DNA from: Escherichia coli
GTDB lineage: Bacteria; Pseudomonadota; Gammaproteobacteria; Enterobacterales; Enterobacteriaceae
Reading direction: 5' to 3' (one strand)
Assembly: GCF_002854065.1 (NCBI RefSeq)
Contig: NZ_CP024147.1
DNA length: 64,000 nucleotides
The position numbers and the translations under genes are program-made. Each line of letters opens with the position of its first letter. Position 1 is the first letter of the stretch. Under the pieces are notes generated by a model. It worked only from the letters and a program-made list of their open reading frames with translations. It was not told the origin of the DNA and searched no databases. Below are positions 288 to 40,044 of this stretch, one piece after another.

Positions 288-327
288 CGTCAGATGAAAG
301 AATTAATCGGTAACGAAGGAGATATTC

Positions 328-498
328 ATGTCACTTGCAACCACAGTGAAGGAGAGCAAGTTACAGAGACGCATGTACACGCAGAAAGCTCTCTGGTATC
401 GCCATAATGGCGACCGCGAAGGAATGCGGGTATGCCTTAATTTGTCCCGAGTCGAAGTATTAAATCAGCGTTATTTCCTTGGGCCGTGTCCATTCTGA
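328..498 (+). CDS. Hypothetical small protein (56 aa), prophage
   Basis: ATG at 328 preceded by AAGGAGA RBS; ends TGA 496-498; below the 60-aa cutoff of the ORF track; no recognisable motif. Confidence 0.3.
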   Translation: MSLATTVKESKLQRRMYTQKALWYRHNGDREGMRVCLNLSRVEVLNQRYFLGPCPF

Positions 499-506
499 GG
501 TGAATT

Positions 507-1214
507 ATGGATTTGAATAAATTCGATGAGCCATTCAGCCCTGAAGATATCGAATGGCGAATACAGCAAAGCGGTAAAACACGCGATGGCAAGGTGTGGG
601 CTATGGTGCTGGCTTATGTAACGAACCGGGCAATCATGAAACGCCTGAACGATGTTTGCGGCAAAGCAGGATGGCGCAATGAATACCGCGATATTCCCAA
701 CAACGGCGGAGTTGAATGCGGCATATCAATCAGGATTGATTCCGAATGGGTAACCAAATGGGATGCTGCTGAAAACACGCAGGTAGAAGCCGTCAAAGGT
801 GGTCGTTCCGGCGCAATGAAGCGCGCTGCCGTTCAATGGGGAATCGGTCGGTATCTGTATAACCTTGAGGAAGGTTTCGCACAAACATCTCTCGATAAAA
901 AGCAGGGGTGGCACAGGGCAAAACTGAAGGATGGAACAGGATTTTACTGGCTCCCTCCATCGCTGCCGGGATGGGCAATACCAGCATCAGATAACAAACC
1001 ATCACCAGAAAATACCAACCAGAAATCTCCATCGGTTGACTGCGAACAAATCCTGAAAGACTTCAGCGATTATGCATCAACAGAAACTGACAAGAAAAAA
1101 CTCATCGAGCGTTATCAGCGTGACTGGCAATTAATGGCTGGCAACGAGGAGGCGCAGGCTAAATGCGTTCAGGTAATGAGCATCAGAGTTAACGAACTAA
1201 AACAGGCGGCATAA
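507..1214 (+). CDS. Phage single-strand annealing protein, Rad52/Sak-like
   Basis: 235 aa with KRAAVQWGIGRYLY-type motif recalled from Rad52/Sak annealases; immediately followed by ssb. Confidence 0.55.
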   Translation: MDLNKFDEPFSPEDIEWRIQQSGKTRDGKVWAMVLAYVTNRAIMKRLNDVCGKAGWRNEYRDIPNNGGVECGISIRIDSEWVTKWDAAENTQVEAVKGGRSGAMKRAAVQWGIGRYLYNLEEGFAQTSLDKKQGWHRAKLKDGTGFYWLPPSLPGWAIPASDNKPSPENTNQKSPSVDCEQILKDFSDYASTETDKKKLIERYQRDWQLMAGNEEAQAKCVQVMSIRVNELKQAA

Positions 1215-1721
1215 ATGGCAAGCAGAGGCGTAAATAAGGTGATTATCCTTGGTCGGGTAGGACAAGACCCGGAAGTTCGATACTCACCATCAGGAACAGC
1301 GTTCGCTAACCTGACAATAGCCACGTCAGAACAATGGCGAGATAAAAATACTGGCGAGCAAAAGGAATTGACTGAATGGCATCGTGTTGCTGTATCCGGG
1401 AAACTGGCTGAGGTCGTGGGGCAGTATGTGAAAAAAGGTGATCAGATTTATTTCGAGGGAATGCTGAGAACCAGAAAGTGGAAAGACCAGTCAGGGCAAG
1501 ACCGTTACACAACCGAGGTTCATGTCGGAATTAATGGCGTGATGCAAATGCTTGGCGGCATTGGCGACAGCAAACAACAAGCAGCCAGCAGGCAATCACA
1601 GAAGCCACAGCAGCAATCATCACCAGCACAACACAACGAACCTCCGATGGATTTTGACGACGATATACCCTTTGCACCAGTAACTCTCCCCTTCCCTCGT
1701 CACGCTATTCACGCAATTTAA
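1215..1721 (+). CDS. ssb: Single-stranded DNA-binding protein, prophage-encoded, with 15-aa extension past the DDDIPF tail
   Basis: [23 protein letters not shown]... OB-fold N-terminus near-identical to enterobacterial SSB; acidic DFDDDIPF motif present but followed by [15 protein letters not shown]. Confidence 0.9.
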
Positions 1722-1734
1722 TCAGGAGAAAATC

Positions 1735-2031
1735 ATGCCAGCGCCTCTGTATGGTGCGGATGACGCGCGCCGCTGTTCCGGCAATTCCGTATCGGAGGTG
1801 CTGGATAAATTCAGGAAAAACTACAACCGGATAATGTCGCTACCGCAGGAAACGAAAGAGGAAAAGGAATTTCGCCACTGTATATGGCTTGCAGAGAAAG
1901 AAGAACGCGAGCGAATTTACCAGACATCAATCCGACCATTCCGCAAAGCCACATATACCCACTTCCCTGAATATATCGACCCGCGCCTGCGTAATTACCG
2001 CTCACGCTATGGCGCTATCAGTAATGACTGA
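1735..2031 (+). CDS. Hypothetical phage protein (98 aa)
   Basis: ORF following ssb with AGGAGA RBS; no recognisable motif. Confidence 0.45.
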
Positions 2032-2041
2032 GGAATTTACC

Positions 2042-2206
2042 ATGAGAGGACTTGCATACAATCCCGGAATTCTTCCGGCAGAAATGATTATTCGCCAACG
2101 CGTAAAGCCAATGCCATCGAGAGAGGAATTGCTTAAGAGAAAGAGTTTCGGTTCTGTTAATGACAACAAATATCTGAATGCGATGTGGCTGAGTGGGAAG
2201 AAATGA
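2042..2206 (+). CDS. Hypothetical small phage protein (54 aa)
   Basis: ATG at 2042 with GAGGA RBS; stop overlaps next start as ATGA (2203-2206). Confidence 0.3.
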
Positions 2207-2685
2207 AACAAATGACACTAATTGAGATGGATGGATTTCTGAAAGGTAAATGCATCCCATGTGATTTAAAGGTTAACGAAACAAACGCTGAATATCTTGT
2301 GCGTAAGTTCGGTGAACTTGAATCAAAACTAGAAACGGCGTTGCGGGAGTGTAGTTCTGCTGGAATCACGATTGATAACCTTGAGGCCAAGTGCGCGAAG
2401 ATGGCTGCTGAAAATACCTCGCTTAAGCAATCTGAGAAGGAATTTAATGACTTTTGTCGTGAGGAGTTTAGCGAATGGGAAGATGATGTTACTGAAACCC
2501 CAGCCACCGATGCTTTCCTGGCTGAAGTACGGGCGCAGGGGGTAGAGATGTACGCAGATAACCTCGACAACGGAGCAGACGACGCAGAACGAGGTGGTTT
2601 TGATTATGCCGCTAAGTTTCTACGCGGTGAGGCGTCTAGTGTACGCTTGTTCGCCGACCAGCTTCGCAAAGGAGGCAACCAGTGA
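2203..2685 (+). CDS. Hypothetical phage protein, possibly Ead/Ea22-like
   Basis: ATGA start/stop overlap with upstream ORF; acidic protein in a run of coupled small phage genes. Confidence 0.45.
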
Positions 2686-3161
2686 GCAAGATTAACTATC
2701 AGGCACTGCGTGAGGCGGCGGAACGTGCAATTCCAGCAATGGAACGCCTGTTAATGTTGCCAGTTGATGATGATTTGTTAAGTGAACAGGAACTTAAAGA
2801 TTACGGTGTGGATATTGATGCGCTCAACGCCTTCAAATTTCTGACCGGACCAGAAACCGTGCTGGCGCTGCTGGATGAGCTGGAAAGAAAACAGCAATAC
2901 ATCAAATCCCGAGACCAGGAGAACGAGGATATTGCGCTAACGGTAGGGAAGCTGCGCGTTGAGCTGGAAGCCGCAGAGAAGCGCATTGCTGAGCTGGAGT
3001 TGCGGGAGGTTGTGCTTCCGCAATGCTATAGCATGTTGCATCGCGTCGATTTTGACGAGCCTTACCACACTGAAATGGTTTACAGGCAGCATCAGGTTCT
3101 TGAGGCACTGCACAACGCTGGAATAAACGTCACCGAAGCAGGTAAAGGAGAGGCATCATGA
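2682..3161 (+). CDS. Ead/Ea22-like phage protein
   Basis: GTG start with AAAGGAGG RBS overlapping previous stop; N-terminal ...YQALREAAERA... resembles Ea22-like proteins as recalled. Confidence 0.45.
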   Translation: MSKINYQALREAAERAIPAMERLLMLPVDDDLLSEQELKDYGVDIDALNAFKFLTGPETVLALLDELERKQQYIKSRDQENEDIALTVGKLRVELEAAEKRIAELELREVVLPQCYSMLHRVDFDEPYHTEMVYRQHQVLEALHNAGINVTEAGKGEAS

Positions 3162-3670
3162 GCACTATCACAAGAGAATGGCTGCAGCAGGCTATCAACG
3201 ATTATGAAAGCGTTCGTGATGAGCTTCCTTTCGGGCTTGATGATTACCAGGGGAATATCCTGGCTGCCCTGCGTATCGCACTGGCATCGCTGGAAGCAGA
3301 GCCGGTGGCGTGGAAGGTAACATTCACGCAAATTGACCGTGAATATAACACGTTCACTGGTATGTATTCTGACAAAGCAGAAGTCGAACGGTGGGTGCGG
3401 CTGCATAAAGCATGTAATTTTCGGGCAGATATAACACCGCTTTATACCGCCAAGCCAGTGCCGGTAACTCCGGATGGTTGGATAAGCTGTAGTGAGCGAA
3501 TGCCAGAGGACGGTCAGCACGTAATTATTTTATGTGATGGCGCATTCGTTCTTTATGCGCAATATCGAGACGGAGAGTTTTTCGATATTGTCCGCAATGG
3601 TGATGAATTTTTCGAAACACAGAGTCGCAATGTAACCGACTGGATGCAACTACCAGAACCTCCCCTTTGA
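3158..3670 (+). CDS. DUF551-domain phage protein
   Basis: C-terminal W-x-SCSERMPEDG ... TDWMQLPEPP motif typical of DUF551. Confidence 0.55.
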   Translation: MSTITREWLQQAINDYESVRDELPFGLDDYQGNILAALRIALASLEAEPVAWKVTFTQIDREYNTFTGMYSDKAEVERWVRLHKACNFRADITPLYTAKPVPVTPDGWISCSERMPEDGQHVIILCDGAFVLYAQYRDGEFFDIVRNGDEFFETQSRNVTDWMQLPEPPL

Positions 3671-3766
3671 TAGCTAAGCTTATACATATCTTTTACATCA
3701 GCAATCTATTGTTAATCTCCAATCAATGTTACGTTGTCATCTCTCTCATGCTTTGGAGGTAGTGAT

Positions 3767-3958
3767 ATGTCTTGTCCAAAATGCGGTTCTGGAAATATTG
3801 CAAAAGAAAAAACAATGCGTGGATGGTCTGATGATTATGTGTGCTGCGATTGCGGATACAACGACTCTAAAGACGCATTTGGAGAGCGTGGTAAAAACGA
3901 GTTTGTCAAAATTAATAAAGAACGCGAAGGCGGTGATGCTGCCAACTTACTGATTTAG
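3767..3958 (+). CDS. Small zinc-ribbon protein (CxxC...CxxC); native last 4 codons displaced by IS1
   Basis: GGAGG RBS, MSCPKCGSGN...CCDCG; reading frame runs into IS1 at 3932; native C-terminus ...EREG-NEKS* reconstructable across the insertion. Confidence 0.5.
   Translation: MSCPKCGSGNIAKEKTMRGWSDDYVCCDCGYNDSKDAFGERGKNEFVKINKEREGGDAANLLI
3923..3931. repeat. 9-bp target site duplication (CGCGAAGGC), left copy
   Basis: Identical 9-mer directly abuts both ends of the IS1 at 3932-4699. Confidence 0.9.
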
Positions 3959-3986
3959 TGTATGATGGTGTTTTTGAGGTGCTCCA

Positions 3987-4262
3987 GTGGCTTCTGTTTC
4001 TATCAGCTGTCCCTCCTGTTCAGCTACTGACGGGGTGGTGCGTAACGGCAAAAGCACTGCCGGACATCAGCGCTATCTCTGCTCTCACTGCCGTAAAACA
4101 TGGCAACTGCAGTTCACTTACACCGCTTCTCAACCCGGTACGCACCAGAAAATCATTGATATGGCCATGAATGGCGTTGGATGCCGGGCAACCGCCCGCA
4201 TTATGGGCGTTGGCCTCAACACGATTTTCCGCCATTTAAAAAACTCAGGCCGCAGTCGGTAA
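3987..4262 (+). CDS. insA: IS1 InsA
   Basis: 91 aa [18 protein letters not shown]... Confidence 0.9.
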
Positions 4263-4684
4263 CCTCGCGCATACAGCCGGGCAGTGACGTCATCGTCTGC
4301 GCGGAAATGGACGAACAGTGGGGATACGTCGGGGCTAAATCGCGCCAGCGCTGGCTGTTTTACGCGTATGACAGGCTCCGGAAGACGGTTGTTGCGCACG
4401 TATTCGGTGAACGCACTATGGCGACGCTGGGGCGTCTTATGAGCCTGCTGTCACCCTTTGACGTGGTGATATGGATGACGGATGGCTGGCCGCTGTATGA
4501 ATCCCGCCTGAAGGGAAAGCTGCACGTAATCAGCAAGCGATATACGCAGCGAATTGAGCGGCATAACCTGAATCTGAGGCAGCACTTGGCACGGCTGGGA
4601 CGGAAGTCGCTGTCGTTCTCAAAATCGGTGGAGCTGCATGACAAAGTCATCGGGCATTATCTGAACATAAAACACTATCAATAA
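4181..4684 (+). CDS. insB: IS1 InsB frame (made as InsAB' by -1 frameshift)
   Basis: 167-aa ORF overlapping insA in -1 frame; A6C slippery motif intact. Confidence 0.85.
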
Positions 4685-4699
4685 GTTGGAGTCATTACC

Positions 4700-4708
4700 C
4701 GCGAAGGC
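4700..4708. repeat. 9-bp target site duplication (CGCGAAGGC), right copy
   Basis: Matches 3923-3931. Confidence 0.9.
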
Positions 4709-4786
4709 AACGAAAAAAGCTAATTTATTTATTCATATATGAAAACAATGTAATAAATATTCGAATTGAAGAATTGAAAGAACACC

Positions 4787-4810
4787 AAGCCGCCTGATGG
4801 CGGTTTTTTA
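4787..4810 (+). terminator. Rho-independent terminator-like hairpin
   Basis: GCCGCC-TGAT-GGCGGT stem-loop followed by TTTTTT. Confidence 0.5.
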
Positions 4811-4823
4811 TTGGAGACAAGAA

Positions 4824-5168
4824 ATGTCAGATTTGGCTATGAAGGTTTTGAAATGGCAATCGACTGGCGATGTCGGCATCAGTAGCGCAACTCTTGCCTC
4901 AATCGCATGTGGCCTGAAAAAGAATATCTATGGTCATCACTTCGGCGCTCCCCATGACGCAGCAGACTTTCGGCGATGCGTTGCACTTGTTGAGCAGATT
5001 CCAGAAATCAGAGATTCATTCGACAAGGTTGCAAAGCGCGTTCCGGCATTCAAAGGAATCCTCAACGAATGGGATTCACTCGTTGCTCTGTTGAAGTCTG
5101 AAATGAAGACGTACGGGAACAAAGCACCAGAGACTTACAGAAGAATCAGCGAGCTACGCAAGGACTAA
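4824..5168 (+). CDS. Hypothetical protein (114 aa), prophage cargo
   Basis: ATG at 4824 with GGAGA RBS directly after the terminator; no recognisable motif. Confidence 0.45.
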   Translation: MSDLAMKVLKWQSTGDVGISSATLASIACGLKKNIYGHHFGAPHDAADFRRCVALVEQIPEIRDSFDKVAKRVPAFKGILNEWDSLVALLKSEMKTYGNKAPETYRRISELRKD

Positions 5169-5245
5169 CGCCTCACACTCGATGAGGCCTGTACATATCT
5201 GATAGATCCGCTATATGGCGGTTTATTTTTGCCTGGAGAATTAAG

Positions 5246-5437
5246 ATGACCGATACCAGCCTGATTCCTGAGAAAGAAGTGATGAACAAGCTCGGTGTTT
5301 CATCACGTCAGACAATCTGGAACTATACCAAACGGCACGGATTTCCGAAGCCAGTCAGAACCCACCCCAAATCATACCTTCGTGAAGCTGTTGAAGGGTG
5401 GATTCTTAACGGTGGCGTTAATCAGAAATGCTCCTGA
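5246..5437 (+). CDS. alpA: AlpA-family phage transcriptional regulator / excisionase-like
   Basis: 63-aa HTH protein resembling AlpA (MTDTSLIPEKEVMNKLGVSSRQTIWNYTKRHGFPKP...); adjacent to integrase. Confidence 0.7.
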   Translation: MTDTSLIPEKEVMNKLGVSSRQTIWNYTKRHGFPKPVRTHPKSYLREAVEGWILNGGVNQKCS

Positions 5438-6596
5438 TGTGCCAGAACAATTTATCAGCGTGAAGCTCATACGCTTTGCGCTGAGCCTCTATCCAGTCGT
5501 GTTTATTGTATACGGACATTATCCCGCCAAGTTCATGACCGAGCATTCGCTCAGTAACATGAGGCTCGACATTCATCTCGGACAGACGTGTAACAAGCGT
5601 TCTTCTGAAATCGTGTGTTCGCCAGTAACCTAGATCCATCCCTCCCCTTATTCTATTTACGAATCGGTTGGCTGCAGCGATGCTGATCGGTTTGTTTATG
5701 TCTTCTCCAGGGAAAAGAACATCATTGTACGTTGTCATGGCCTTTTCGAGGAAAGGCTTAATTTGTTCGAAGATTGGACGGCGGATAACATTACCCATCT
5801 TGCTATGCTCTTTCGGTACGGTCCATACGTTTTCCAGCAGGTCAAATTCTGTCTTTTTTGCCAGCCTAAGCTCTGAGAGCCTCGCCCCCCACAGCATAAG
5901 CATCTGATGAAGTAGCTTATTTGACGTAGACGCACGGCTTCTTTCAATAGCAAGCCAAATCTTAGCCAGTTCGTGATACGACAGTACCCGATCCCCTACC
6001 TCAGCGCGGGAGCCGAAGTCCCTTGGTTGGATGCTCATAATTGCGCAACTATCTATCAACTGACGCCGCATGCACCAACTTATTGCTGATCTTAGTTGAC
6101 TTAGCACCTGCCTTGCTCGGCGTGGATTATCTCTTTCTTCTTCGGTAAGCAGGTCAACCCATTGCTTAACCGTGATAGAAGATGCCGGACGATTAGGAAA
6201 GGCGTCATGCATGCGCTTCATAACCGTTGATCGGTAAAGTGCCTGGGTCTTTTCTCTGAGAGTTGTAGAGACGTAGTTGTCGAACCAGTAGTCGAGACAC
6301 TGGGCGACCGTCATGGAGTTCTCCACCTTCTCTTCAAAATAAGTGCGTGGATCCGTTCCTGAGAAATAGAGCTTTCGCAAGTCAGCAGTGATCTGTCTGG
6401 CATCCTTCAAAGACAGGGATGGGTATCGACCAAGCCCAAGTCGATTAGGCTTGCCATGCCAGCGATAGCGGTACTGGAACTGGATGACCCCCTTCGGTGA
6501 AATTCGTACGCTGAGGCCATCGGCATCAGCCACTTCTTGTGGGCCCGAATATGGTTTACCATAAATACTACGCAGTTTTGTGTCGCTTATAGCCAT
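5418..6596 (-). CDS. int: Tyrosine-type site-specific integrase (P4/CP4-57-like)
   Basis: 392 aa; C-terminal catalytic region with R...HDFRRT...LGH...Y motifs. Confidence 0.9.
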   Translation of the reverse strand: MAISDTKLRSIYGKPYSGPQEVADADGLSVRISPKGVIQFQYRYRWHGKPNRLGLGRYPSLSLKDARQITADLRKLYFSGTDPRTYFEEKVENSMTVAQCLDYWFDNYVSTTLREKTQALYRSTVMKRMHDAFPNRPASSITVKQWVDLLTEEERDNPRRARQVLSQLRSAISWCMRRQLIDSCAIMSIQPRDFGSRAEVGDRVLSYHELAKIWLAIERSRASTSNKLLHQMLMLWGARLSELRLAKKTEFDLLENVWTVPKEHSKMGNVIRRPIFEQIKPFLEKAMTTYNDVLFPGEDINKPISIAAANRFVNRIRGGMDLGYWRTHDFRRTLVTRLSEMNVEPHVTERMLGHELGGIMSVYNKHDWIEAQRKAYELHADKLFWHIRSISD

Positions 6597-6777
6597 AAAT
6601 AATATTTGGTACGCTCAGAAATAATGGTTTGGTACACATCTGGTACACAATATCACATGGACAACAGCGCACAGTAAACAACTATATTTGACGTTCGTAG
6701 ACATACTCAGGTGAAAAAATGGTTGTTTTTCGAGTTATAACAGACAGTTAATTAACTACAGTGGACAATGCTAGACA

Positions 6778-8202
6778 ATGACAGACGCAGATAAACAACC
6801 TACCTTCCTCTTTCACGATTACGAAACCTTTGGCACGCACCCCGCGTTAGATCGCCCTGCACAGTTCGCAGCCATTCGCACCGATAGCGAATTCAATGTC
6901 ATCGGAGAACCCGAAGTCTTTTACTGCAAGCCCGCTGATGACTATTTACCCCAGCCAGGAGCAGTATTAATTACCGGTATTACCCCGCAGGAAGCACGGG
7001 CGAAAGGAGAAAACGAAGCCGCGTTTGCCGCCCGTATTCACTTGCTTTTTACCGTACCGAAGACCTGTATTCTGGGCTACAACAATGTGCGTTTCGACGA
7101 CGAAGTCACACGCAACATTTTTTATCGTAATTTCTACGATCCTTACGCCTGGAGCTGGCAAAACCGCAATTCGCGCTGGGATCTGCTTGACGTGATGCGC
7201 GCCTGCTATGCCCTGCGCCCGGACGGCATCAACTGGCCGGAAAACGACGACGGTCTGCCGAGCTTCCGCCTGGAACATCTCACCAAGGCCAACGGTATTG
7301 AACACAGTAACGCCCATGATGCGATGGCCGACGTTTACGCGACCATCGCCATGGCGAAGCTGGTGAAGGCCCAACAGCCAAAGCTGTTTGATTATCTGTA
7401 TGCCTACCGGGGCAAAAACAAGCTGATGACGCTGATTGACGTCCCGCAGATGAAGCCACTGGTGCATGTCTCGGGAATGTTTGGCGCCTGGCGCGGAAAC
7501 ACCAGCTGGATTGCGCCGCTGGCCTGGCATCCGGATAACCGTAATGCGGTGATCATGGTCGACCTGGCGGGCGACATCGCCCCGCTGCTCGAGCTGGATG
7601 CCGATACGCTGCGCGAGCGCCTGTATACGCCGAAGGCCGAGCTCGGCGACAGTTCGCCGGTGCCGATTAAGCTGGTGCATCTGAATAAGTGCCCGGTGCT
7701 GGCGCAGGCCAATACCCTGCGCCCAGAAGACGCTGACCGTTTAGGCATTAACCGACAGCACTGCCTGGATAACCTGAAACTGCTGCGCGATAACCCGCAG
7801 GTGCGCGAGAAGGTGGTGGCGATTTTTGCTGAAGCCGAGCCGTTTGTCGCATCGGACAACGTCGACGCCCAGCTTTATAACGGTTTCTTTAGCGACGCCG
7901 ACCGCGCGGCGATGAAAATCGTGCTGGAGACCGAGCCGCGCAATCTGCCGGCGCTGGACATTACCTTCGCCGACCCGCGTATTGAGAAGCTGCTGTTTAA
8001 CTTCCGCGCGCGCAACTTCCCCGGCACGCTGGATGAAAACGAGCAACAGCGCTGGCTGGAACACCGTCGGCAGATCTTCACCCCGGAATTTTTACAGGCC
8101 TACGCCCAGCAACTGGAGATGTTGTACGGTCAGTATGAGGGGAATAACGAGAAGCTATCGCTGCTGAAGGCGCTGTATCAGTACGTGCAGGAGATTGTTT
8201 AA
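6778..8202 (+). CDS. sbcB: Exodeoxyribonuclease I
   Basis: 474 aa, near-colinear with E. coli SbcB (FLFHDYETFGTHPALDRPAQFAAIRTD...). Confidence 0.95.
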   Translation: MTDADKQPTFLFHDYETFGTHPALDRPAQFAAIRTDSEFNVIGEPEVFYCKPADDYLPQPGAVLITGITPQEARAKGENEAAFAARIHLLFTVPKTCILGYNNVRFDDEVTRNIFYRNFYDPYAWSWQNRNSRWDLLDVMRACYALRPDGINWPENDDGLPSFRLEHLTKANGIEHSNAHDAMADVYATIAMAKLVKAQQPKLFDYLYAYRGKNKLMTLIDVPQMKPLVHVSGMFGAWRGNTSWIAPLAWHPDNRNAVIMVDLAGDIAPLLELDADTLRERLYTPKAELGDSSPVPIKLVHLNKCPVLAQANTLRPEDADRLGINRQHCLDNLKLLRDNPQVREKVVAIFAEAEPFVASDNVDAQLYNGFFSDADRAAMKIVLETEPRNLPALDITFADPRIEKLLFNFRARNFPGTLDENEQQRWLEHRRQIFTPEFLQAYAQQLEMLYGQYEGNNEKLSLLKALYQYVQEIV

Positions 8203-8211
8203 TTCAACGCA

Positions 8212-8240
8212 GCGACGCCGGAAAATCTTCCCGGCGTCGC
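8212..8240. terminator. GC-rich hairpin between convergent sbcB and yeeD (putative bidirectional terminator)
   Basis: GCGACGCCGG-AAAATCTTC-CCGGCGTCGC perfect 10-bp stem; weak flanking U-tracts. Confidence 0.4.
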
Positions 8241-8255
8241 TTGATGCCTGGGGCA

Positions 8256-8480
8256 TTATTTCTGTACGGTGATGGTCCACGCCGCATCGCCAGACTGCTG
8301 ATAGTCCGTGACCGTAAAGCCCTCTTCCGCCGCCCACTGCGGGATGGCTTCCGTCGCCTGAGTACAGTCGAACTCAATCACCAGCTGGTCGCCGCTGGCC
8401 AGTTCCGCCATCGCCGCCTTCGCTTCAATTAACGGGAACGGGCAAACCTGCGTGACTACGTCCAGTTTCTTCACAACCAT
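8256..8480 (-). CDS. yeeD: TusA-like sulfur carrier protein YeeD
   Basis: 74 aa with CPFP motif; conserved position downstream of yeeE. Confidence 0.85.
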   Translation of the reverse strand: MVVKKLDVVTQVCPFPLIEAKAAMAELASGDQLVIEFDCTQATEAIPQWAAEEGFTVTDYQQSGDAAWTITVQK

Positions 8481-8525
8481 TTTTTCTACTCCTTAAGCCG
8501 TTGCGGTTTTCAGTTTTGCTTTCCG

Positions 8526-9505
8526 CTACGGGCGAACATACAACATCCACGACGCGCACCACACGCCGAGAATCATAAATACCAGGCCAATCCAGCCCTG
8601 CCAGGTCATCATCGCCGTCATCACCAAACCGTTGCCGATCGAGCAGCCGCCGGCAATGCTGGCACCGAAGCCCATCAGTACGCCGCCACCCGCGCTACGC
8701 AGCGTGGTGCTGGCATCGGCAGCGCGGACGCGGAATTCACGGCTGGCTTTCGCGGCAATAAACGAACCGATAAAGATTCCCAGCACCAGGAAGACGCCCC
8801 AGTTGAGGTACTTGCTGTCACCCCCCACCAGGAACTGCAGGATATTGGCGGTCGGCGAGGTAATGCCAAGGCCAAACATACGTCCGGTGGCCTCACTCAG
8901 CGGCCAGGCCAGCAGGGCGATAAGGCCAATCAGCACGGCGGTCACAAACGGATGCCAACGCTTTTCAAACAGCAGATGCGCCAGGCCAGTGCGGCGCGGC
9001 GGCAGAGAAGCTACTTTGAGCTTTGGTTTGCTCAGCTCTTTGCGAACAAACCACAGGGTCACCGCCACCAGCAGAACGATAAGTGGCCAGACGGAGATAT
9101 TCAGGGTTTCGGCAATGCCGTTGTGAGTGGTCGTGTGTTGACCGAGGAATTTGTTAAGCCCAGCCGCGTGCGGTGAACGCATGATCGCGCTCATCACCAT
9201 ATAGGTGACCAGTGCAATCCAGCTGCCAATCAGCCCTTCCCCGGCACGATACCAGGTGCCGGTGGCGCAGCCTCCCGCATAAACGATACCGATACCAAAA
9301 ACAAATCCACCCACCACGGTGCCAAGCCACGGGAACGCGCCTGCATCGTACTGCACCAGGCCAAGCTGGATCAGGGCGAACACGCCGATACTCTGGATAC
9401 AGATAGCAATCAACAGTGCGTAAAACATGCGGTTATTTTTGGTGATATACATATCGCGAAAGCCACCCGTCAGGCAGAAACGACCGCGCTGCATAACGAA
9501 TCCCA
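8526..9505 (-). pseudogene. yeeE: yeeE (tsuA) thiosulfate transporter, 3' portion from codon ~18 onward, separated from its 5' end by IS1
   Basis: Homology to YeeE begins at ...GFVMQRGRFCLTGGFRDMY; codons upstream of 9505 run directly into the IS1 end at 9506. Confidence 0.85.
9497..9505. repeat. 9-bp target site duplication (CGAATCCCA), left copy
   Basis: Identical 9-mer at 10274-10282 abutting the other IS1 end. Confidence 0.9.
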
Positions 9506-9560
9506 GGTGATGCTGCCAACTTACTGATTTAGTGTATGATGGTGTTTTTGAGGTGCTCCA

Positions 9561-9836
9561 GTGGCTTCTGTTTCTATCAGCTGTCCCTCCTGTTCAGCTA
9601 CTGACGGGGTGGTGCGTAACGGCAAAAGCACCGCCGGACATCAGCGCTATCTCTGCTCTCACTGCCGTAAAACATGGCAACTGCAGTTCACTTACACCGC
9701 TTCTCAACCCGGTACGCACCAGAAAATCATTGATATGGCCATGAATGGCGTTGGATGCCGGGCAACTGCCCGCATTATGGGCGTTGGCCTCAACACGATT
9801 TTACGTCACTTAAAAAACTCAGGCCGCAGTCGGTAA
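9561..9836 (+). CDS. insA: IS1 InsA
   Basis: 91 aa. Confidence 0.9.
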
Positions 9837-10258
9837 CCTCGCGCATACAGCCGGGCAGTGACGTCATCGTCTGCGCGGAAATGGACGAACAGTGGGGCTA
9901 TGTCGGGGCTAAATCGCGCCAGCGCTGGCTGTTTTACGCGTATGACAGTCTCCGGAAGACGGTTGTTGCGCACGTATTCGGTGAACGCACTATGGCGACG
10001 CTGGGGCGTCTTATGAGCCTGCTGTCACCCTTTGACGTGGTGATATGGATGACGGATGGCTGGCCGCTGTATGAATCCCGCCTGAAGGGAAAGCTGCACG
10101 TAATCAGCAAGCGATATACGCAGCGAATTGAGCGGCATAACCTGAATCTGAGGCAGCACCTGGCACGGCTGGGACGGAAGTCGCTGTCGTTCTCAAAATC
10201 GGTGGAGCTGCATGACAAAGTCATCGGGCATTATCTGAACATAAAACACTATCAATAA
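9755..10258 (+). CDS. insB: IS1 InsB frame
   Basis: 167 aa; A6C motif intact. Confidence 0.85.
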
Positions 10259-10273
10259 GTTGGAGTCATTACC

Positions 10274-10325
10274 CGAATCCCAGTAAAGCCCCGCAAATCA
10301 TGCCACTTATTATCATGTGCAACAT
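10274..10325 (-). pseudogene. yeeE: yeeE 5' fragment (first 17 codons, MLHMIISGMICGALLGF) including the right-hand TSD copy
   Basis: Reverse-strand translation matches the YeeE N-terminus; rejoining across the IS1 (minus one TSD copy) restores ...ALLGFVMQRGRF. Confidence 0.8.
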
Positions 10326-10460
10326 AAGAATCAATTAACTCAATATTATCAGTCTTAAAATTATTCCTGACCCCGCCGGACGGCTCCAATAACCAAAAGC
10401 TCTATATTATTCCCGACGGTTATTAATATTGATTTTTTAATCACCCCACAAACTTAAGAC

Positions 10461-10492
10461 AAAAAAAACCGGAGGCCCAGACCTCCGGTTTT
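10461..10492. terminator. Bidirectional rho-independent terminator downstream of plaP
   Basis: AAAAAAAA-CCGGAGGCCCAGACCTCCGG-TTTT. Confidence 0.6.
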
Positions 10493-10515
10493 GCAACCAT
10501 CGTTTTTAAATTCAG

Positions 10516-11874
10516 TTATGCAACATCTTCGTACTGCGGAACCGGGTTGCGGAAGCTTTTGGTCACACAGGCCAGGTAGATCAGACCGATACCGGCCCAG
10601 ATCAGGCCCAGAACCATAGAGCTCTCTTCCAGGTTCACCCACAGTGCGCCAACGGTCAGCGCGCCGCAGATTGGCAGGAACAGGTACTGGAAGTGATCTT
10701 TCAGCGTCTTATTACGCTTCTCACGGATCCAGAACTGAGAGATAACGGACAGGTTCACGAAGGTGAACGCCACCAGCGCACCGAAGTTAATCAGCGCCGT
10801 TGCCATCACCAGGTCGAAGTTAATCGCCAGCAGCGCAATCGCGCCAACCAGGATGATGTTCATCGCCGGGGTGCGCCAGGTTGGATGCACGTAGCCGAAG
10901 AAGCTTTTCGGGAACACGCCATCACGGCCCATCACGTACATCAGACGCGCCACACCCGCATGCGCCGCCATACCGGAAGCCAGCACGGTAATGGTGGAGA
11001 AGATCAGCGCGCCAACCTGGAAGGCTTTACCCGCCACGTACAGCATGATTTCAGGCTGTGAGGCGTCCGGATCTTTGAAGCGAGAGATATCCGGGAAGTA
11101 GAGCTGCAGGAAATAGGTGGAGAAGATAAAGATCAGGCCACCAATCAGCGCCGTCAGGAAGATAGCACGCGGAATCACACGCTCAGCGTCTTTGGTTTCT
11201 TCAGACAGGTTGCTGATACCGTCAAAACCGGTAAAGGAGAAGCACAGAATCGTGGCCCCGGTAATCATAGGGATCACGTGCGCATCACCCGACCAGAACG
11301 GACGGTTGCTTGCCAGCGTACCGGCACCTTCGCCGTGCGCCACGCCATAAATCACCATACCTAGGATCACGGCAATCAGTACCACCTGGAACACCACGAT
11401 CACGGTGTTAAAGTTGGCGACAGATTTGATGCTGCGCAGGTTAAAGGCGGTCATAAAGGCAACCAGTGCAATCACGAATACCCATGACGGTATCGACGGC
11501 ACCAGCGCTTCGAAATAGATTTTTGCCAGCAGAATGTTGATCATCGGCGCGAACAGATAATCGAGCAGCGAAGACCAACCCACCATAAAGCCAACGGTCG
11601 GGCTGATGGATTTCTGGGCATAAGTGTAGGCAGAGCCCGCCGAAGGATAACGGCGCACCAGCTTACCGTAGCTCAGCGCGGTGAACAGAATTGCCACCAG
11701 AGCGAAGGCATAAGCTGTTGGCACGTGACCATCGGTCATGCCAGATACGATACCGAACGTATCAAACAGCGTCATCGGCTGCATATAGGCCAGGCCCATC
11801 ATAACAACCGGAATAAGCGTAAGCGTTTTACGTAATTCCACGCGAGAGGTGTTTGGAGTAACGTTATGCGACAC
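10516..11874 (-). CDS. plaP: Putrescine importer PlaP (YeeF), APC-family permease
   Basis: 452 aa, near-colinear with E. coli PlaP ([20 protein letters not shown]...). Confidence 0.9.
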
Positions 11875-12221
11875 GGTCAGTCTCCATTACGGCGATGGCC
11901 GGCGCAAAATTGAAAAATTGCCCCATTTTTTTTCTGTTTCCTCAGCGACAACGACTGTCGTTTTTTAAGTAAGTATCTATCCGGTACGAAGCCCGGCCTC
12001 TTTAATTTGATGGTTGTTTTGATGTAAAAAAAATAACCGACGCGGCAAGCACGTCGGTTAATCTCAATTTTTTACATTCGACATATTTTGCCCCAAACGG
12101 TAGCAAAAAGACAAGCCGCTGAGAGCATAATCAGCACGCCTTCTCGTCTAAACGACTGATAATTCAGCAACTCCCGAATCATAAATCTCATCAATAGCAC
12201 TATTTGCTAAAACAGCGGCGA

Positions 12222-13043
12222 TTATTCCATCGGCATACGTAACGGGTCAGGATACTGATACTCAAAGCCGAGCTCGCGGCAAATGAGATTACCGTCGATG
12301 ATTTTGCCTTTTCCATTACCGCTGTCGCTAAAGCTCGGAACCGCTAACCCCAGCTCACGCGCCATTTGCGGATAGAAAATACCGCGAGCGGGATGCAACG
12401 GCGCACAAATGTTATAAATGTGTCCACCCTTCGGCGCCTGTAATAAAAGCGTAATAGCAGAGACAACATCTTCCAGATGGACGAGATTCACGCCGTGCTG
12501 ACCATCCGGCGCGGATTTACCTGCGAAGAAACGTCCCGGATGCCGATCCGGCCCCACCAGCCCCGCCAGACGCAGAATATCCACCGACGTCCCCGGCAAT
12601 TGATGAAGCCAGTCTTCCAGCTCTTTTAATACTCTGCCGCTAGCGGTAACCGGTTCACGCGGCGTGCTCTCTTTTACCAGCCCTTCTTCTTTACCGTAGA
12701 CCGAAGTGGAGCTGGTAAAGATAATGCGCGGAATCTGGTACGCCAGCGCGGTGTCCACAATCTCCTGCACCGCCTGATGATAGAAATCTTCGCCCGGACC
12801 GCTGCGGCGCGCGGGGAGCGTAATGACCAGCGCGTCAACATTCATTAAAGCATCAAGGTCATCAGCCTCACAGACCAGCTGCGGATCGAGCCGCAACGGA
12901 TAGCTATCAATCCCGCACATCCGTGCGGCTTCCACGCCATCCTCTGTCGTTTTACTGCCCGTTACCTGCCAGCCGCGCGCCATCAACGACAGCGCCAGCG
13001 GCATACCCAGCCACCCTAAACCGACAATTGCCACCTTCTTCAT
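12222..13043 (-). CDS. yeeZ: NAD-dependent epimerase/dehydratase family protein YeeZ
   Basis: Start chosen at MKKVAIVGLGWLG (AGGAGA RBS), matching the 274-aa E. coli YeeZ; the longer ORF 12222-13109 is rejected. Confidence 0.85.
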   Translation of the reverse strand: MKKVAIVGLGWLGMPLALSLMARGWQVTGSKTTEDGVEAARMCGIDSYPLRLDPQLVCEADDLDALMNVDALVITLPARRSGPGEDFYHQAVQEIVDTALAYQIPRIIFTSSTSVYGKEEGLVKESTPREPVTASGRVLKELEDWLHQLPGTSVDILRLAGLVGPDRHPGRFFAGKSAPDGQHGVNLVHLEDVVSAITLLLQAPKGGHIYNICAPLHPARGIFYPQMARELGLAVPSFSDSGNGKGKIIDGNLICRELGFEYQYPDPLRMPME

Positions 13044-13149
13044 TGCGCTATCTCCTGGTTCATCCTGCACTCCTCTCATAAGGCTACGCCACAGCGAGAA
13101 AACTGACAATTTATAGTGGTAACATGAATTGATTTAATGAATGAAAAAA

Positions 13150-13195
13150 GCGCTTGCGCTCAACGACAAAAGTGGTTTAGGTTAAAAGACATCAA
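13150..13195 (+). promoter_or_regulatory. his operon promoter region (approximate)
   Basis: Position relative to hisL and recalled similarity to the E. coli his promoter; -35/-10 hexamers not confidently placed. Confidence 0.35.
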
Positions 13196-13221
13196 GTGAA
13201 TAGTCATTCAACGAGAAATTT

Positions 13222-13272
13222 ATGAGCCGCGTTCAATTTAAACACCACCATCATCACCATCATCCTGACTAG
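13222..13272 (+). CDS. hisL: his operon leader peptide ([16 protein letters not shown])
   Basis: 16-codon ORF with seven consecutive His codons. Confidence 0.9.
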
Positions 13273-13333
13273 TCTTTCAGGCGATGTGTGCTGGGAGACA
13301 TTCAGATCTTCCAGTGGTGCATGAACGCAAGAG

Positions 13334-13370
13334 AGCCCCCGGAAGATCATCTTCCGGGGGCTTTTTTTTG
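13334..13370 (+). terminator. his attenuator terminator
   Basis: AGCCCCCGGAAGATCATCTTCCGGGGGCT hairpin followed by TTTTTTTT, between hisL and hisG. Confidence 0.9.
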
Positions 13371-13404
13371 AACCAAATTCAGCAGGGTAATGAGGAATAC
13401 AGAA

Positions 13405-14303
13405 TGTTAGATAACAGCCGTTTACGCATAGCTATTCAGAAATCAGGCCGCCTGAGCGATGATTCACGCGAATTACTGGCCCGTTGTGGTATCAAAATCA
13501 ATCTCCACACCCAGCGCCTGATCGCGATGGCGGAGAACATGCCGATCGATATCCTGCGCGTTCGCGATGACGATATTCCGGGGTTGATTATGGATGGCGT
13601 GGTCGATCTCGGCATTATCGGTGAAAACGTTCTGGAAGAAGAGCTGCTGAGCCGCCGCGCGCAAGGCGAAGACCCGCGCTACTTTACCCTGCGTCGTCTG
13701 GACTTCGGCGGCTGCCGTCTGTCGCTGGCGACCCCGGCGGATGAAGCCTGGAACGGCCCGGCTGCGCTCGACGGCAAACGTATTGCCACCTCTTACCCAC
13801 ACCTGCTCAAACGTTATCTCGACCAGAAAGGCATCAGCTTTAAATCCTGCCTGCTGAACGGCTCTGTTGAAGTGGCCCCGCGTGCCGGTCTGGCCGACGC
13901 CATCTGCGACCTGGTATCAACCGGCGCGACGCTGGAAGCCAACGGCCTGCGTGAAGTAGAAGTGATGTTCCGCTCTAAAGCCTGCCTGATTCAACGCGAC
14001 GGCGAGATGAGCGACACCAAGCAGCAGTTGATTGACCGTCTGTTAACCCGTATTCAGGGCGTGATTCAGGCGCGCGAATCGAAATACATCATGATGCACG
14101 CGCCAACCGAACGCCTGGAAGAAGTGATTGCCCTGCTGCCGGGTGCCGAGCGCCCAACCATTCTGCCGCTGGCGGGCGACCAGCAGCGCGTGGCGATGCA
14201 CATGGTCAGCAGCGAAACCCTGTTCTGGGAAACCATGGAAAAACTGAAGTCCCTGGGTGCCAGCTCGATTCTGGTACTGCCGATTGAGAAGATGATGGAG
14301 TAA
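13405..14303 (+). CDS. hisG: ATP phosphoribosyltransferase
   Basis: 299 aa starting [17 protein letters not shown]; the ORF-track 5' extension to 13284 spans the attenuator and is rejected. Confidence 0.95.
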
Positions 14304-28199: not shown

Positions 28200-28726
28200 A
28201 ATGGAATAGATAACAGATCAGAATAAACTGGATATGTGGCATAACCTACAGCAGGAATCTGATGGCCCGTCTCAACTAAAAAAACTCGGCCCAACCCAAA
28301 CTTTAATCCGGCTTCTACATCACCCAGTTTATCACCAACAATAAAAGATTGTTTTAAGTCAATGGAATAATCACGAGCTGCAGACTCGAACATACCCGTA
28401 TTAGGTTTGCGGCACGAACAATCACATCGATATTCAGGGACAATTCCATCTGGATGATGAGGGCAATAATAGATATCTAATATATCGATACCCTGTGATT
28501 TCAAGATACCCCTATACCACTTTGTCAATTTATCATAATCAGATAAGGTGTAATATCCTTTGGCAATTCCGGCCTGATTTGTCACAATGATTATTTTATA
28601 ACCATGAGCAATAAATCTTTTCATGCCACTGATACAGTTTTTGGTAAATTCAAAATCTTCAATTTTATATAGATAATTGACTTCCTTATTAATTACACCA
28701 TCGCGATCAAGAAATGCCACTTTCAT
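28196..28726 (-). CDS. gmhB: D-glycero-D-manno-heptose 1,7-bisphosphate phosphatase (HAD family)
   Basis: 176 aa, FLDRDGVIN HAD motif I; within heptose gene block. Confidence 0.8.
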   Translation of the reverse strand: MKVAFLDRDGVINKEVNYLYKIEDFEFTKNCISGMKRFIAHGYKIIIVTNQAGIAKGYYTLSDYDKLTKWYRGILKSQGIDILDIYYCPHHPDGIVPEYRCDCSCRKPNTGMFESAARDYSIDLKQSFIVGDKLGDVEAGLKFGLGRVFLVETGHQIPAVGYATYPVYSDLLSIPL

Positions 28727-29400
28727 TTAAATCTCTCACATGCAATGAAATAATCTTCAGGAATTCCTATATCGATAAAATATGAGGAATTAACGTAGGC
28801 CTTAAACTCTCCTTTGAATTTAGGCAAAAAATCAGATTCAAAAGAAAATTTATTCCCAGCAAACTTGCTCATAATTTCCTTTGAGACAATATAAATTCCA
28901 CTGTTAATAATTCCAGGGCCAGTTCTTCCCTTTTCTACCATAGCATTAACATTAGATTTCTCATCTAAATCTAAACTACCATAACGAGCGACATCATTAA
29001 CTTCGACACCAGATATTAGAAGATCTGTTCCCTTCGAAGCTTCTATGAAGTCACTATAATTAAGCTCGCAGTACGTATCACCATTAAGAACAATGAATTT
29101 ATCCGTTCTGACTTTAGAACTGGCATATTTAATTGCGCCACCAGTTCCTAGAGGTTCTTTTTCGACAACAAAGTCAACCTCACAACCAACAGGGTTGTCA
29201 TGGACAACCCTGTCGATGATATAGTCAGCTTTGTAGGATAATGATAGTATAATTCTGGTAGCTCCTTGTTTTTCAAGATACGTCATTAGACGATAAAGAA
29301 ATGGTTGCCCTGAAATATCTACCATTGGCTTAGGAAGCTCGCCACTAACACTCTTCAGACGAGTACCTAGCCCTCCTGCCAAAATAACTACATCATACAT
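28723..29400 (-). CDS. hddC: D-glycero-alpha-D-manno-heptose 1-phosphate guanylyltransferase
   Basis: 225 aa nucleotidyltransferase (VILAGGLGTRL); context with hddA/gmhA/gmhB. Confidence 0.7.
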   Translation of the reverse strand: MYDVVILAGGLGTRLKSVSGELPKPMVDISGQPFLYRLMTYLEKQGATRIILSLSYKADYIIDRVVHDNPVGCEVDFVVEKEPLGTGGAIKYASSKVRTDKFIVLNGDTYCELNYSDFIEASKGTDLLISGVEVNDVARYGSLDLDEKSNVNAMVEKGRTGPGIINSGIYIVSKEIMSKFAGNKFSFESDFLPKFKGEFKAYVNSSYFIDIGIPEDYFIACERFK

Positions 29401-29402
29401 AA

Positions 29403-29993
29403 TTATTTATCTTCTGGTTTGAAAATGGCACGTTCAACAATTGCGCAGATCATATGACCAATGCAAATATGGCATTCTTGAATGTATGGTGTAATTTTAG
29501 AAGGTACATTAATTGAATAGTCTACCAAATCTTTAAGCTTACCTGCTTCACCACATAGCGCCACGCTTGTCACACCCAGTTCTTTTGCCAGTTCCATCGC
29601 GTTAATGATATTAACGGAGTTACCTGAAGTACTGATGCCAATGAAAACATCACCTGGCTTGCTTTGAGCTTGCAGTTGTCTTGCAAATAGTTTATCAAAT
29701 CCGTAGTCATTGCCGATAGCCGTTAGCATCGAGGTATCAGTGGTGATAGCAATGGCTGGTAATCCTGGTCTATCGAAAAAGAAGCGACTGACGAACTCAG
29801 CCGCGATATGCTGAGAATCAGCAGCACTACCACCATTCCCGGCAAGAATTACTTTATTCCCGTTTTTATATGCATTGATAATCAAATCTGCAACTAAAGA
29901 GATTTGGCTCAATACACTGTCAGATTCCTGAAGCAATTTTTTTACTGCAATGCTGTCATCAAGATATGCTTTAATATAATTTACATTGTCCAT
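29403..29993 (-). CDS. gmhA: Sedoheptulose 7-phosphate isomerase (SIS domain)
   Basis: 196 aa; GNGGSAADSQH motif. Confidence 0.8.
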   Translation of the reverse strand: MDNVNYIKAYLDDSIAVKKLLQESDSVLSQISLVADLIINAYKNGNKVILAGNGGSAADSQHIAAEFVSRFFFDRPGLPAIAITTDTSMLTAIGNDYGFDKLFARQLQAQSKPGDVFIGISTSGNSVNIINAMELAKELGVTSVALCGEAGKLKDLVDYSINVPSKITPYIQECHICIGHMICAIVERAIFKPEDK

Positions 29994-31009
29994 GAATATG
30001 CTCCATCCTCGACAAATTGGAATTTATAGACTTCGCCACCAAACTCTTGTAGTTTACGTTCGATCAACTGTTTTCGCTCCGGTTCAACGAATAGCATCAT
30101 AAAACCACCGCCACCGGCACCTGAAACTTTCATTGACTTAACACCGATACTAAACACTTCCTTCTCGATTTTCTCAATCATCGGATTACTGATTGACGAT
30201 GAGGTGTTTTTCTTACTTTCCCATGCATCCAGGAATGTCGCGGCCATAGCATCGATATCAGATTTGAGTAAGTGTTCTTTAATCTGATATGCTGATTCTT
30301 TAACTTTATGCATAGCCATCAGTTTAGACTCTTTGTCACTCTCTAAAGATCTAATCTGGTCATCAATAATTTTCGCAGAGTCTCTCGAAGCCCCTGTAAA
30401 ATAAAGAATCAGGGATGACTCTAACTCATTTATTATATATCTACGAATTCTAAGTGGGTTAACAATAACGCGATTACCTTCATAAAACTCCATGAAATTA
30501 AAACCACCAAATGTTGCAGCATACTGATCTTGTTTACCACCTGATAAACCACAGTCTACTCGCTCAATCTTGAATGCTAACTGGGCCAGATCATATTCTC
30601 CAAGAGGCAGAGAATACATTTGCCGTAGTCCTTCAAGCATTGAAACAACAACCGTCGATGATGACCCCAAACCGCTACCTGCAGGAGCGTCAGAATGAGT
30701 AATGATACGAACCGGTTTTAATTCGCCGTCAAAATAATCATTCATGACTCGAAGGTAAACTGCTCGATGCAGTTTTAGCTTCCCTTCAATCGTTACACCA
30801 TTGGTAAGATCAATCTCTTCTCTGATATTAAGGTCGGTTGCCTCAAAAATAACTTTACTACCTTCAAGCTCATCATCAATGTAAGCATACGCATACATAT
30901 TGATGGTCGCATTCAGTACACACCCACCGAATGTATCGCTATAAGGTGAAACATCTGTCCCACCTCCTGCAATGCCTAAACGTAGAGGCGCTTTGCTTCT
31001 AACTTTCAT
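29981..31009 (-). CDS. hddA: D-glycero-alpha-D-manno-heptose 7-phosphate kinase (GHMP kinase)
   Basis: 342 aa GHMP kinase (PAGSGLGSSS); context. Confidence 0.7.
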   Translation of the reverse strand: MKVRSKAPLRLGIAGGGTDVSPYSDTFGGCVLNATINMYAYAYIDDELEGSKVIFEATDLNIREEIDLTNGVTIEGKLKLHRAVYLRVMNDYFDGELKPVRIITHSDAPAGSGLGSSSTVVVSMLEGLRQMYSLPLGEYDLAQLAFKIERVDCGLSGGKQDQYAATFGGFNFMEFYEGNRVIVNPLRIRRYIINELESSLILYFTGASRDSAKIIDDQIRSLESDKESKLMAMHKVKESAYQIKEHLLKSDIDAMAATFLDAWESKKNTSSSISNPMIEKIEKEVFSIGVKSMKVSGAGGGGFMMLFVEPERKQLIERKLQEFGGEVYKFQFVEDGAYSWTM

Positions 31010-31025
31010 AACAAAAGAATCCCTA

Positions 31026-32054
31026 TTAACGATTCAGAGGAATGCGGCCAGATGCGATTTCTTTTCTCCAGTGCTGGAGTAAATCACGAAACATATCTGT
31101 CGCTTTTATTTCTGGTTTCCAGTCAATGAAATTCCTGATTTTAGTATTATCAAACATTTGGTAATCGGCATCAATTGGACGCAGGCGATCTGTATCTGTA
31201 ACAACTTCAATATCGTCACGAGTGCTAAAGCTCAGTAAAAGGTCTATAACCTCAGGAAGTTTGAATGCTTCTTCACCTGCAATATTAAATGCTTCGCCGA
31301 AAGGAACATTCCCTTTTTCGCTCTCCAGAGCTAATAAATAGTATGCACGCACAGCGTCTCTAGCATCTTGGAAAGTACGTACGCTTGCTAAATTGCCAAC
31401 TTTTAATTTTGGTTCCTGATGTCCAGCTTCGATCAAGGCAATCTGCTTGGCAACAGTACTTTCGAAAAATACATCACTACGGCGTGGGCCTGTATGTGTG
31501 CCCATGCGAGTGATAAATGTACGCAACCCATATGCCTCGCCATAAAAACGCCCTAAATAATCGGTACCAATTTTACTAATGCTGTAAGGGCTAGCGCCAT
31601 GGAACTGCGTATCTTCGTTTAAAGCTTCACCTACTTTTGCTCTACCATAAACTTCACTAGAAGAACAAACATGAACAACAGGATCATAACCATCTTGTTG
31701 TTTTAGTTTTTTAATGCATTCCAACAGATTGGCAGTACCAATAATATTGGTCTGCAAGGTCTCGATCGGAATATCGAATGAGGTGCGGGGAAATGACTGC
31801 GCAGCAAGGTGGAAAATGAATTTTGGACGCTTCGCTTCAATTAAGTTATACATGGAAGTATAGTCATTAAGGTCTGCGTATTGGATGAATACTCTATCCT
31901 TTTTATTAATCCGGTCTGTTAAATGATAGATATTATCCATTGGCTCTTGCCAACGCATCATTCCAATTACTGTGTCGGTTGTATTCTCTAAAATATAATC
32001 TGCTAATTGAGAACCAACTTGTCCAGTGAATCCTGTAATTAATACATTATTCAT
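31026..32054 (-). CDS. dmhA: GDP-sugar 4,6-dehydratase (Gmd family); predicted GDP-D-glycero-D-manno-heptose 4,6-dehydratase
   Basis: 342 aa SDR-extended dehydratase adjacent to GDP-heptose genes; not in the colanic acid gmd/fcl block. Confidence 0.6.
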   Translation of the reverse strand: MNNVLITGFTGQVGSQLADYILENTTDTVIGMMRWQEPMDNIYHLTDRINKKDRVFIQYADLNDYTSMYNLIEAKRPKFIFHLAAQSFPRTSFDIPIETLQTNIIGTANLLECIKKLKQQDGYDPVVHVCSSSEVYGRAKVGEALNEDTQFHGASPYSISKIGTDYLGRFYGEAYGLRTFITRMGTHTGPRRSDVFFESTVAKQIALIEAGHQEPKLKVGNLASVRTFQDARDAVRAYYLLALESEKGNVPFGEAFNIAGEEAFKLPEVIDLLLSFSTRDDIEVVTDTDRLRPIDADYQMFDNTKIRNFIDWKPEIKATDMFRDLLQHWRKEIASGRIPLNR

Positions 32055-32060
32055 ATATGC

Positions 32061-32894: not shown

Positions 32895-32967
32895 ACTCAG
32901 TTACCAAATTATACGAAGTGAAGATGTATGCACATAAAATGCTATGAAGACAATTTTATCTGCCATT

Positions 32968-34712: not shown

Positions 34713-34713
34713 G

Positions 34714-37650
<2,937 letters not shown>

Positions 37651-37654
<4 letters not shown>

Positions 37655-38520: not shown

Positions 38521-38532
38521 CTTTTATCCTTA

Positions 38533-39621: not shown

Positions 39622-39715
39622 TTTGAATTTCCGCTATGACTTATAACTTATGGCTTGATAATATGAATGTTTGTTAAGAACAATCTGAATATTAAAAAAG
39701 ACACTTATGATTAGA

Positions 39716-39754
39716 CACGCTACCGCCCCTGGCTCTCCAGCTACCAGCGCACTG
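39716..39754 (-). promoter_or_regulatory. JUMPstart element with ops site (GGCGGTAGCGT at 39717-39727), RfaH-dependent antitermination
   Basis: Minus-strand sequence CAGTGCGCTGGTAGCTGGAGAGCCAGGGGCGGTAGCGTG matches the 39-bp JUMPstart consensus; ~95 bp upstream of rmlB. Confidence 0.75.
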
Positions 39755-40044
39755 CACCTTCAATGATAAAAATCATTTATGTCAAGGTAAAAATCCGCAA
39801 CGACTCCCACCTGCAAACCCAAAAAATTTCGGCAACTATTTTCGTCTTAAATGCATTTGAACTCAAGGAAAAATCTTATAAACGATATGCAACGCCTACA
39901 TTTCTAACCTATTGTTATTTTTTACTTTGTTTTATGAAATAAAAAGGCAGTGAAGCTAGTAGTAGGTTACCCTACATACTTATGCCCATCTGCCGTTCTA
40001 AAACGCCGTTCTTAAATTTGCTTTATCGTTTACTGAGAAACGAC

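Follow-up and report, generated by a model that had tools for sequence, protein, structure and literature searches.

Insertions of IS1 typically duplicate 9 bp of target DNA, sometimes 8 bp, and when they fall in operons, as in gal and lac, they are classically polar in both orientations. The target considered here is the thiosulfate transporter gene tsuA (yeeE), which forms one operon with tsuB (yeeD); a strain deleted for cysPUWA needs both genes to grow on thiosulfate (PMC11073785). Two further properties of IS1 bear on the fate of an interrupted operon, namely its ability to create fusion promoters (Prentki et al. 1986, as cited in PMC9330008) and its ability to generate adjacent deletions, the mechanism of which has been reviewed (PMC9330008). 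A tsuA::IS1 allele is also on record in enteroaggregative E. coli 042, where RefSeq marks tsuA as a pseudogene without an N-terminus.

The locus described in this report lies in a 64,000-nucleotide stretch of E. coli DNA (referred to here as the window), and its resemblance to the 042 allele is close: in each case the 5′ end of tsuA is inactivated by an IS1A of identical sequence and orientation. The insertion in the window differs from the 042 allele in being independent, clean and duplication-flanked, and in residing in a ~78%-identical tsuA allele. On the account that we consider highly probable, an active-looking IS1A moved by simple insertion into the tsuA gene of an E. coli with an O52-type O antigen, duplicating 9 bp in the process. 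The insertion cuts tsuA, leaving a stub of 18 residues and a 3′ portion that has neither a promoter nor the first transmembrane segment, so that TsuA is very probably inactive; the element also separates tsuB from the native promoter region, and tsuB expression is probably reduced. As TsuA and TsuB are both needed, the TsuAB thiosulfate pathway would be lost, although CysPUWA, the sulfate/thiosulfate transporter whose locus falls outside the window, should mask any phenotype unless it were absent or limiting. The insertion is lineage-specific and recent, and would most simply represent neutral gene decay. In short, IS1 has very probably knocked out tsuA, a transporter gene that is non-essential and redundant, and the result is an ordinary insertional pseudogene of a kind already known.

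With respect to the element itself, direct reading and a script place a complete IS1 of 768 bp on the + strand at 9506-10273. Over its whole 768 bp it shows 100% identity to the IS1 copies of E. coli 042 and AH04, which RefSeq labels 'IS1-like element IS1A family transposase, programmed frameshift', and it is assigned to the IS1A type on the strength of this identity. The left terminal inverted repeat (IRL, 9506-9528, + strand) begins the element with GGTGATGCTGCCAACTTACTGAT and overlaps an inward insA promoter-like site at 9513-9540. The right terminal inverted repeat (IRR, 10251-10273, - strand) is the reverse complement of ...ATCAATAAGTTGGAGTCATTACC, which reads GGTAATGACTCCAACTTATTGAT, and comparison of the two ends by script gave agreement at 18 of 23 positions.

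The coding capacity of the element is likewise intact. From the open reading frame list, insA (9561-9836, + strand) has 91 codons and a GTG start, and its product matches the N-terminal part of transpos_IS1 as well as the IS1/IS1595 zinc-binding domain (NCBIfam). The insB′ frame (9755-10258, + strand), which corresponds to the catalytic part of the transposase, matches positions 75-199 of 199 of NCBIfam transpos_IS1 with 143.7 bits, so that both transposase halves are covered by the same profile (NF033558). Passage from insA to insB′ is provided for by an AAAAAAC (A6C) programmed -1 frameshift site at 9812-9818 (+ strand), where a -1 slip (at 9812) leads into an open frame and yields a 232-residue InsAB′ with no stop. 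A length of ~768 bp, imperfect inverted repeats of ~23 bp, a frameshift gene pair, a 9-bp duplication and near-identity to known isoforms are all features of the IS1 family. Compared with IS1A of E. coli K-12 and 042, the element is no different in its length, its ends, its insA/insB′ pair with the A6C -1 frameshift or its 9-bp duplication, and the insertion site alone is new among 5,426 complete genomes. We regard it as a complete and apparently functional element; transposition activity is suggested by the intact coding capacity together with the absence of two insertions from a near-identical relative, described below.

The element is bounded by two copies of the nonamer CGAATCCCA, at 9497-9505 and 10274-10282, found by direct reading and confirmed by script. 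This repeat has no leftward extension and a single ambiguous base of extension rightward, and the chance of a specified 9-mer recurring at a fixed offset is 4^-9, or ~3.8e-6. It corresponds to nucleotides 44-52 of the tsuA open reading frame, starting at the second base of codon L15 and ending with the first of V18. An earlier note on this DNA had described a complete IS1 on the strand opposite yeeE, with a perfect 9-bp duplication, inserted between codons 17 and 18. The anatomy and coordinates given above bear out the element, its strand and its duplication, and the placement near codons 17/18 also holds, but the insertion point is not exactly between these codons, as the element actually follows the first base of codon 18 (nucleotide 52).

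The same note had proposed that removal of the element and one repeat copy restores the gene, as expected of a clean simple insertion, and this proves to be correct. Excision in silico returns a 340-codon open reading frame beginning MLHMIISGMICGALLGFVMQRGRFC, and the predicted empty site (66 + 63 bp) occurs exactly, with a single copy of the nonamer in each case, in seven uninterrupted public loci, which comprise six Logan assemblies and the complete genome of E. coli 100416. Particularly informative is the uninterrupted locus L001 (SRR23696841), which matches window positions 4700-9506 at 100% identity and shows only 2 differences in the 3,998 bases of 10274-14271. L001 is without the IS1 in tsuA and also without a second complete IS1 copy found at 3932-4699 of the window, and both positions are precise empty sites. 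Given that these sites are empty in so close a relative, both complete IS1 insertions are recent.

The interrupted gene lies on the - strand, with its ATG start at 10325-10323. The restored 340-residue protein scores 673.2 bits against the NCBIfam TsuA profile NF041049 (cut-off 645), and the uninterrupted allele carries the name tsuA in RefSeq. The restored protein also aligns over its full length with YeeE of Spirochaeta thermophila (StYeeE; PDB 6LEO, and 8J4C and 8K1R with YeeD), with residue 1 of StYeeE falling opposite residue 4. All three conserved cysteines are present, namely C25 (in RGRFC), C94 (in AGGCATG) and C302 (in AGGCSIG), aligned to C22, C91 and C293 of StYeeE, respectively; the roles of these three TsuA cysteines have been described (PMC11073785).

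In the window, this gene is divided into two parts. The 5′ fragment (10269-10325, - strand) consists of 17 native codons, a Gly codon made at the junction and a TAA within IRR, and it reads MLHMIISGMICGALLGFG up to the stop. The 3′ portion, from codon 18 onward, occupies 8526-9505 on the - strand (open reading frame list and script). The longest open reading frame left in it begins at the internal methionine M19 (ATG at 9494-9492), which is present as the earlier note had stated, and continues for 322 codons to a TAG at 8526.

That TAG represents a second lesion, a point absent from the first reading. Relative to the RefSeq form, a C-to-T change at 8528 converts CAG to a premature TAG (8526-8528, - strand), and the resulting Q341* removes the last 11 codons of the 351-residue form, which is found in four complete genomes with this allele. 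Since the same TAG at codon 341 is present in uninterrupted relatives (L001-L003, L005 and L006), it arose independently of the insertion, and it is probably the earlier of the two lesions. The alignment to the solved structure does not extend into the tail that is lost, so that the truncation is probably tolerated.

In terms of distribution, this exact insertion was found in 0 of 5,426 complete E. coli genomes, its right junction gave 0 matches in JGI metagenomes, and its only other sighting is in one contig from ENA. A literature search for IS1 in yeeE returned no relevant report. The surrounding sequence has nonetheless received IS1 more than once, as three other independent insertions lie within the same ~250 bp and all four share one orientation. 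The insertion in strain D53-1 is at nucleotides 27-34 of the tsuA open reading frame and has an 8-bp duplication. That in SW07091 is 111 bp upstream of the ATG and involves a variant that is only 93% identical, and that of the AH04 group, a RefSeq IS1A copy, falls within the plaP terminator, 133 bp ahead of the ATG. The 042-group allele (~48 complete genomes) has the AH04 right junction with no duplication, and both the promoter region and ~35 codons are gone; it looks like a later IS1-mediated adjacent deletion derived from an AH04-type insertion.

These observations bear on the strongest alternative to neutral decay, in which the insertion was selected, loss or rewiring of TsuAB being of advantage in certain niches, or in which the plaP-tsuA 5′ region genuinely acts as a hot spot for IS1; this would account for the repeated hits. 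Consistent with this idea are the clustering of four independent insertions in the same orientation within about 250 bp of AT-rich sequence (0.28-0.48 GC) and the additional deletion, reaching codon ~35 from the AH04 right junction, that is seen in the 042 group. We nevertheless consider it unlikely, as a single orientation in four of four cases would be expected by chance about 1 time in 8, most carriers trace to a single clonal event, tsuA stays intact in two of the four cases, and the existence of an uninterrupted and near-identical relative, L001, gives no sign of a sweep. The more specific proposal that the short sequence between the plaP terminator and tsuA codon 18 is a recurrent IS1 target, with the deletion derivative of the 042 lineage now fixed, is doubtful to a similar degree. 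If it were true, it would point either to an IS1 target hot spot or to repeated selection to silence or rewire TsuAB uptake in gut strains, and the recurrence of IS1 at this site is a small lead for the study of IS1 target choice or of sulfur-uptake gene decay in E. coli.

A second alternative would have M19 (ATG at 9494) as the real start of TsuA and the element in a 5′ leader, in which case regulation would be rewired and the transporter still made. Gene prediction leans in this direction: the gene caller of the public collection predicts a 322-residue protein starting at M19 in L001-L003 although these loci are uninterrupted, PGAP gives the name TsuA to a 334-residue protein starting at M19 in strain D53-1, and a weak GGGA Shine-Dalgarno-like motif precedes M19, with none before M1 or M4. 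The sequence upstream of M19, however, has the character of a translated region. In a comparison of the window with the K-12-type allele, to which the DNA of the tsuA region is ~78% identical, 6 of codons 4-18 are identical, 7 differ synonymously and 2 carry conservative replacements, the same pattern as in codons 19-120 (41 identical, 47 synonymous and 14 replacement). The segment encoded by codons 4-18 is also strongly hydrophobic (mean Kyte-Doolittle value 2.28), and residues 4-18 match residues 1-15 of crystallised StYeeE (PDB 6LEO) one for one; the NCBIfam TsuA profile likewise matches from position 1.

The substitution pattern indicates that codons 4-18 are under purifying selection. Together with the hydrophobicity and the structure alignment, this argues that these codons are translated and form the start of the first membrane helix, and, with translation of this segment, that IS1 truly disrupts tsuA. 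A start at M19 is thereby made very unlikely, also because no outward promoter was found ahead of it, and the evidence gives good support to the suggestion in the earlier note that YeeE is abolished. Given that M19 starts are called both in intact loci and in D53-1, annotation alone cannot settle TsuA function. Automatic annotation can in fact conceal 5′ lesions of tsuA, as gene callers and PGAP take the remnant starting at M19 as an intact 'TsuA'.

Disruption of tsuA would also remove the 3′ portion from its source of transcription. The AT-rich plaP-tsuA intergenic region (10326-10464, - strand), which is presumed to hold the native tsuAB promoter, has a GC content of 0.28-0.48 as compared with 0.50 for the window, and a plaP terminator-like hairpin is found at 10492-10465. 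This presumed promoter region is now 777 bp further upstream of the tsuA 3′ portion and stands ahead of the 18-residue stub only. A sigma-70-like scan of 8200-10520 did not locate the native tsuAB promoter; its single site was CTGCCA-16-TATGAT on the + strand, the inward insA promoter-like site mentioned above, and it returned no promoter facing out of the element toward tsuA.

The likeness to described IS1 fusion promoters is that the end of the element in the window carries an outward -35-like TTGGCA (9519-9514, - strand). A lenient scan yielded one poor fusion candidate in which this hexamer is followed by an 18-nt spacer and TATGCA. In contrast to the described cases, TATGCA is all that the flank provides; it has 3 of 6 matches, is without the final T, and gives a predicted start near 9483. 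As this start is downstream of the M19 ATG, the candidate could not express the truncated open reading frame, and an outward or fusion promoter for that frame was rejected. The earlier note had allowed that the internal Met might rescue a 5′-truncated product, a possibility that finds little room here: the scans gave no usable promoter, and the product would lack the first transmembrane segment. Antisense-strand transcription entering from inside IS1 is conceivable.

The downstream gene of the operon, tsuB/yeeD (8256-8480, - strand), is intact. It encodes a TusA-like protein of 74 codons that scores 160.5 bits against NCBIfam NF041048 (cut-off 147.5), and it has a strong ribosome-binding site of its own, AAGGAG. 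As in the classical polar IS1 insertions of gal and lac, the promoter-proximal gene has been hit and a drop in the distal gene is expected; the case differs from these in the separate ribosome-binding site of tsuB and in that polarity is here a prediction. Lowered tsuB expression can reasonably be inferred from the operon structure, and tsuB could still be made by read-through or from an internal promoter, given its own ribosome-binding site. For strain annotation, the locus is best recorded as tsuA::IS1, a pseudogene, with the strain probably TsuAB-deficient, and thiosulfate assimilation would be affected only when the CysPUWA route is unavailable.

The weakest alternative, that the structure is an assembly artefact or reflects recombination between IS1 copies rather than a genuine insertion at this site, is scarcely credible: three IS1 copies do lie within 10 kb, repeats like IS1 often produce mis-joins, and the junction is missing from all complete genomes and JGI metagenomes searched, but both flanks are parts of the same gene and the 9-bp duplication is perfect, an outcome not expected of a chimeric join or of recombination between IS copies, the second copy has a matching duplication of its own, the outer flanks of the two complete copies do not match, which rules out their insertion as a composite unit, the backbone of the window is colinear with L001, where both sites are empty, and the left junction recurs in an independent contig from ENA (L004), which ends 139 bp inside the element. 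On this evidence, the IS1 reached tsuA by a simple transposition in the recent past and is not the product of faulty assembly.

A composite transposon made up of the second IS1 copy, an integrase gene, sbcB, tsuB, the tsuA 3′ portion and the IS1 in tsuA was also considered and rejected on account of the separate duplications, the unlike outer flanks and the empty sites in L001. The second copy is complete (3932-4699, + strand), is 98.8% identical to that in tsuA, and is flanked by CGCGAAGGC at 3923-3931 and 4700-4708. The third copy (1-287, - strand) is 100% identical and is cut by the start of the window. With direct and inverted IS1 copies nearby, the sbcB-tsuBA segment is prone to deletion or inversion.

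The sbcB-tsuBA-plaP segment is 99.8-100% identical to five complete E. coli genomes, and the O52-type O-antigen block at 28200-41000 of the window is ~100% identical to four of those five. Relative to common E. coli alleles, the sbcB-plaP segment is ~78-87% identical, and its proteins are ~85% identical to those of K-12. This protein divergence and the density of IS1 had suggested Shigella or another host outside E. coli, a reading that was rejected in view of the complete E. coli genomes that match at 99.8-100%. In the regions tested between ~6700 and 41000 of the window, matches at ~100% are confined to four or five genomes among the 5,426 complete ones. If the divergence is continuous between the tested regions, this would point to one large imported segment beside the O-antigen locus. 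On the other side of sbcB, a prophage-like remnant (288-6596) extends from the third IS1 copy and contains a Rad52-like recombinase (507-1214) and an SSB-like protein (1215-1721), both recognized by reading the translations, as well as a tyrosine integrase (5418-6596). In some relatives, such as L003, dacD directly adjoins sbcB.
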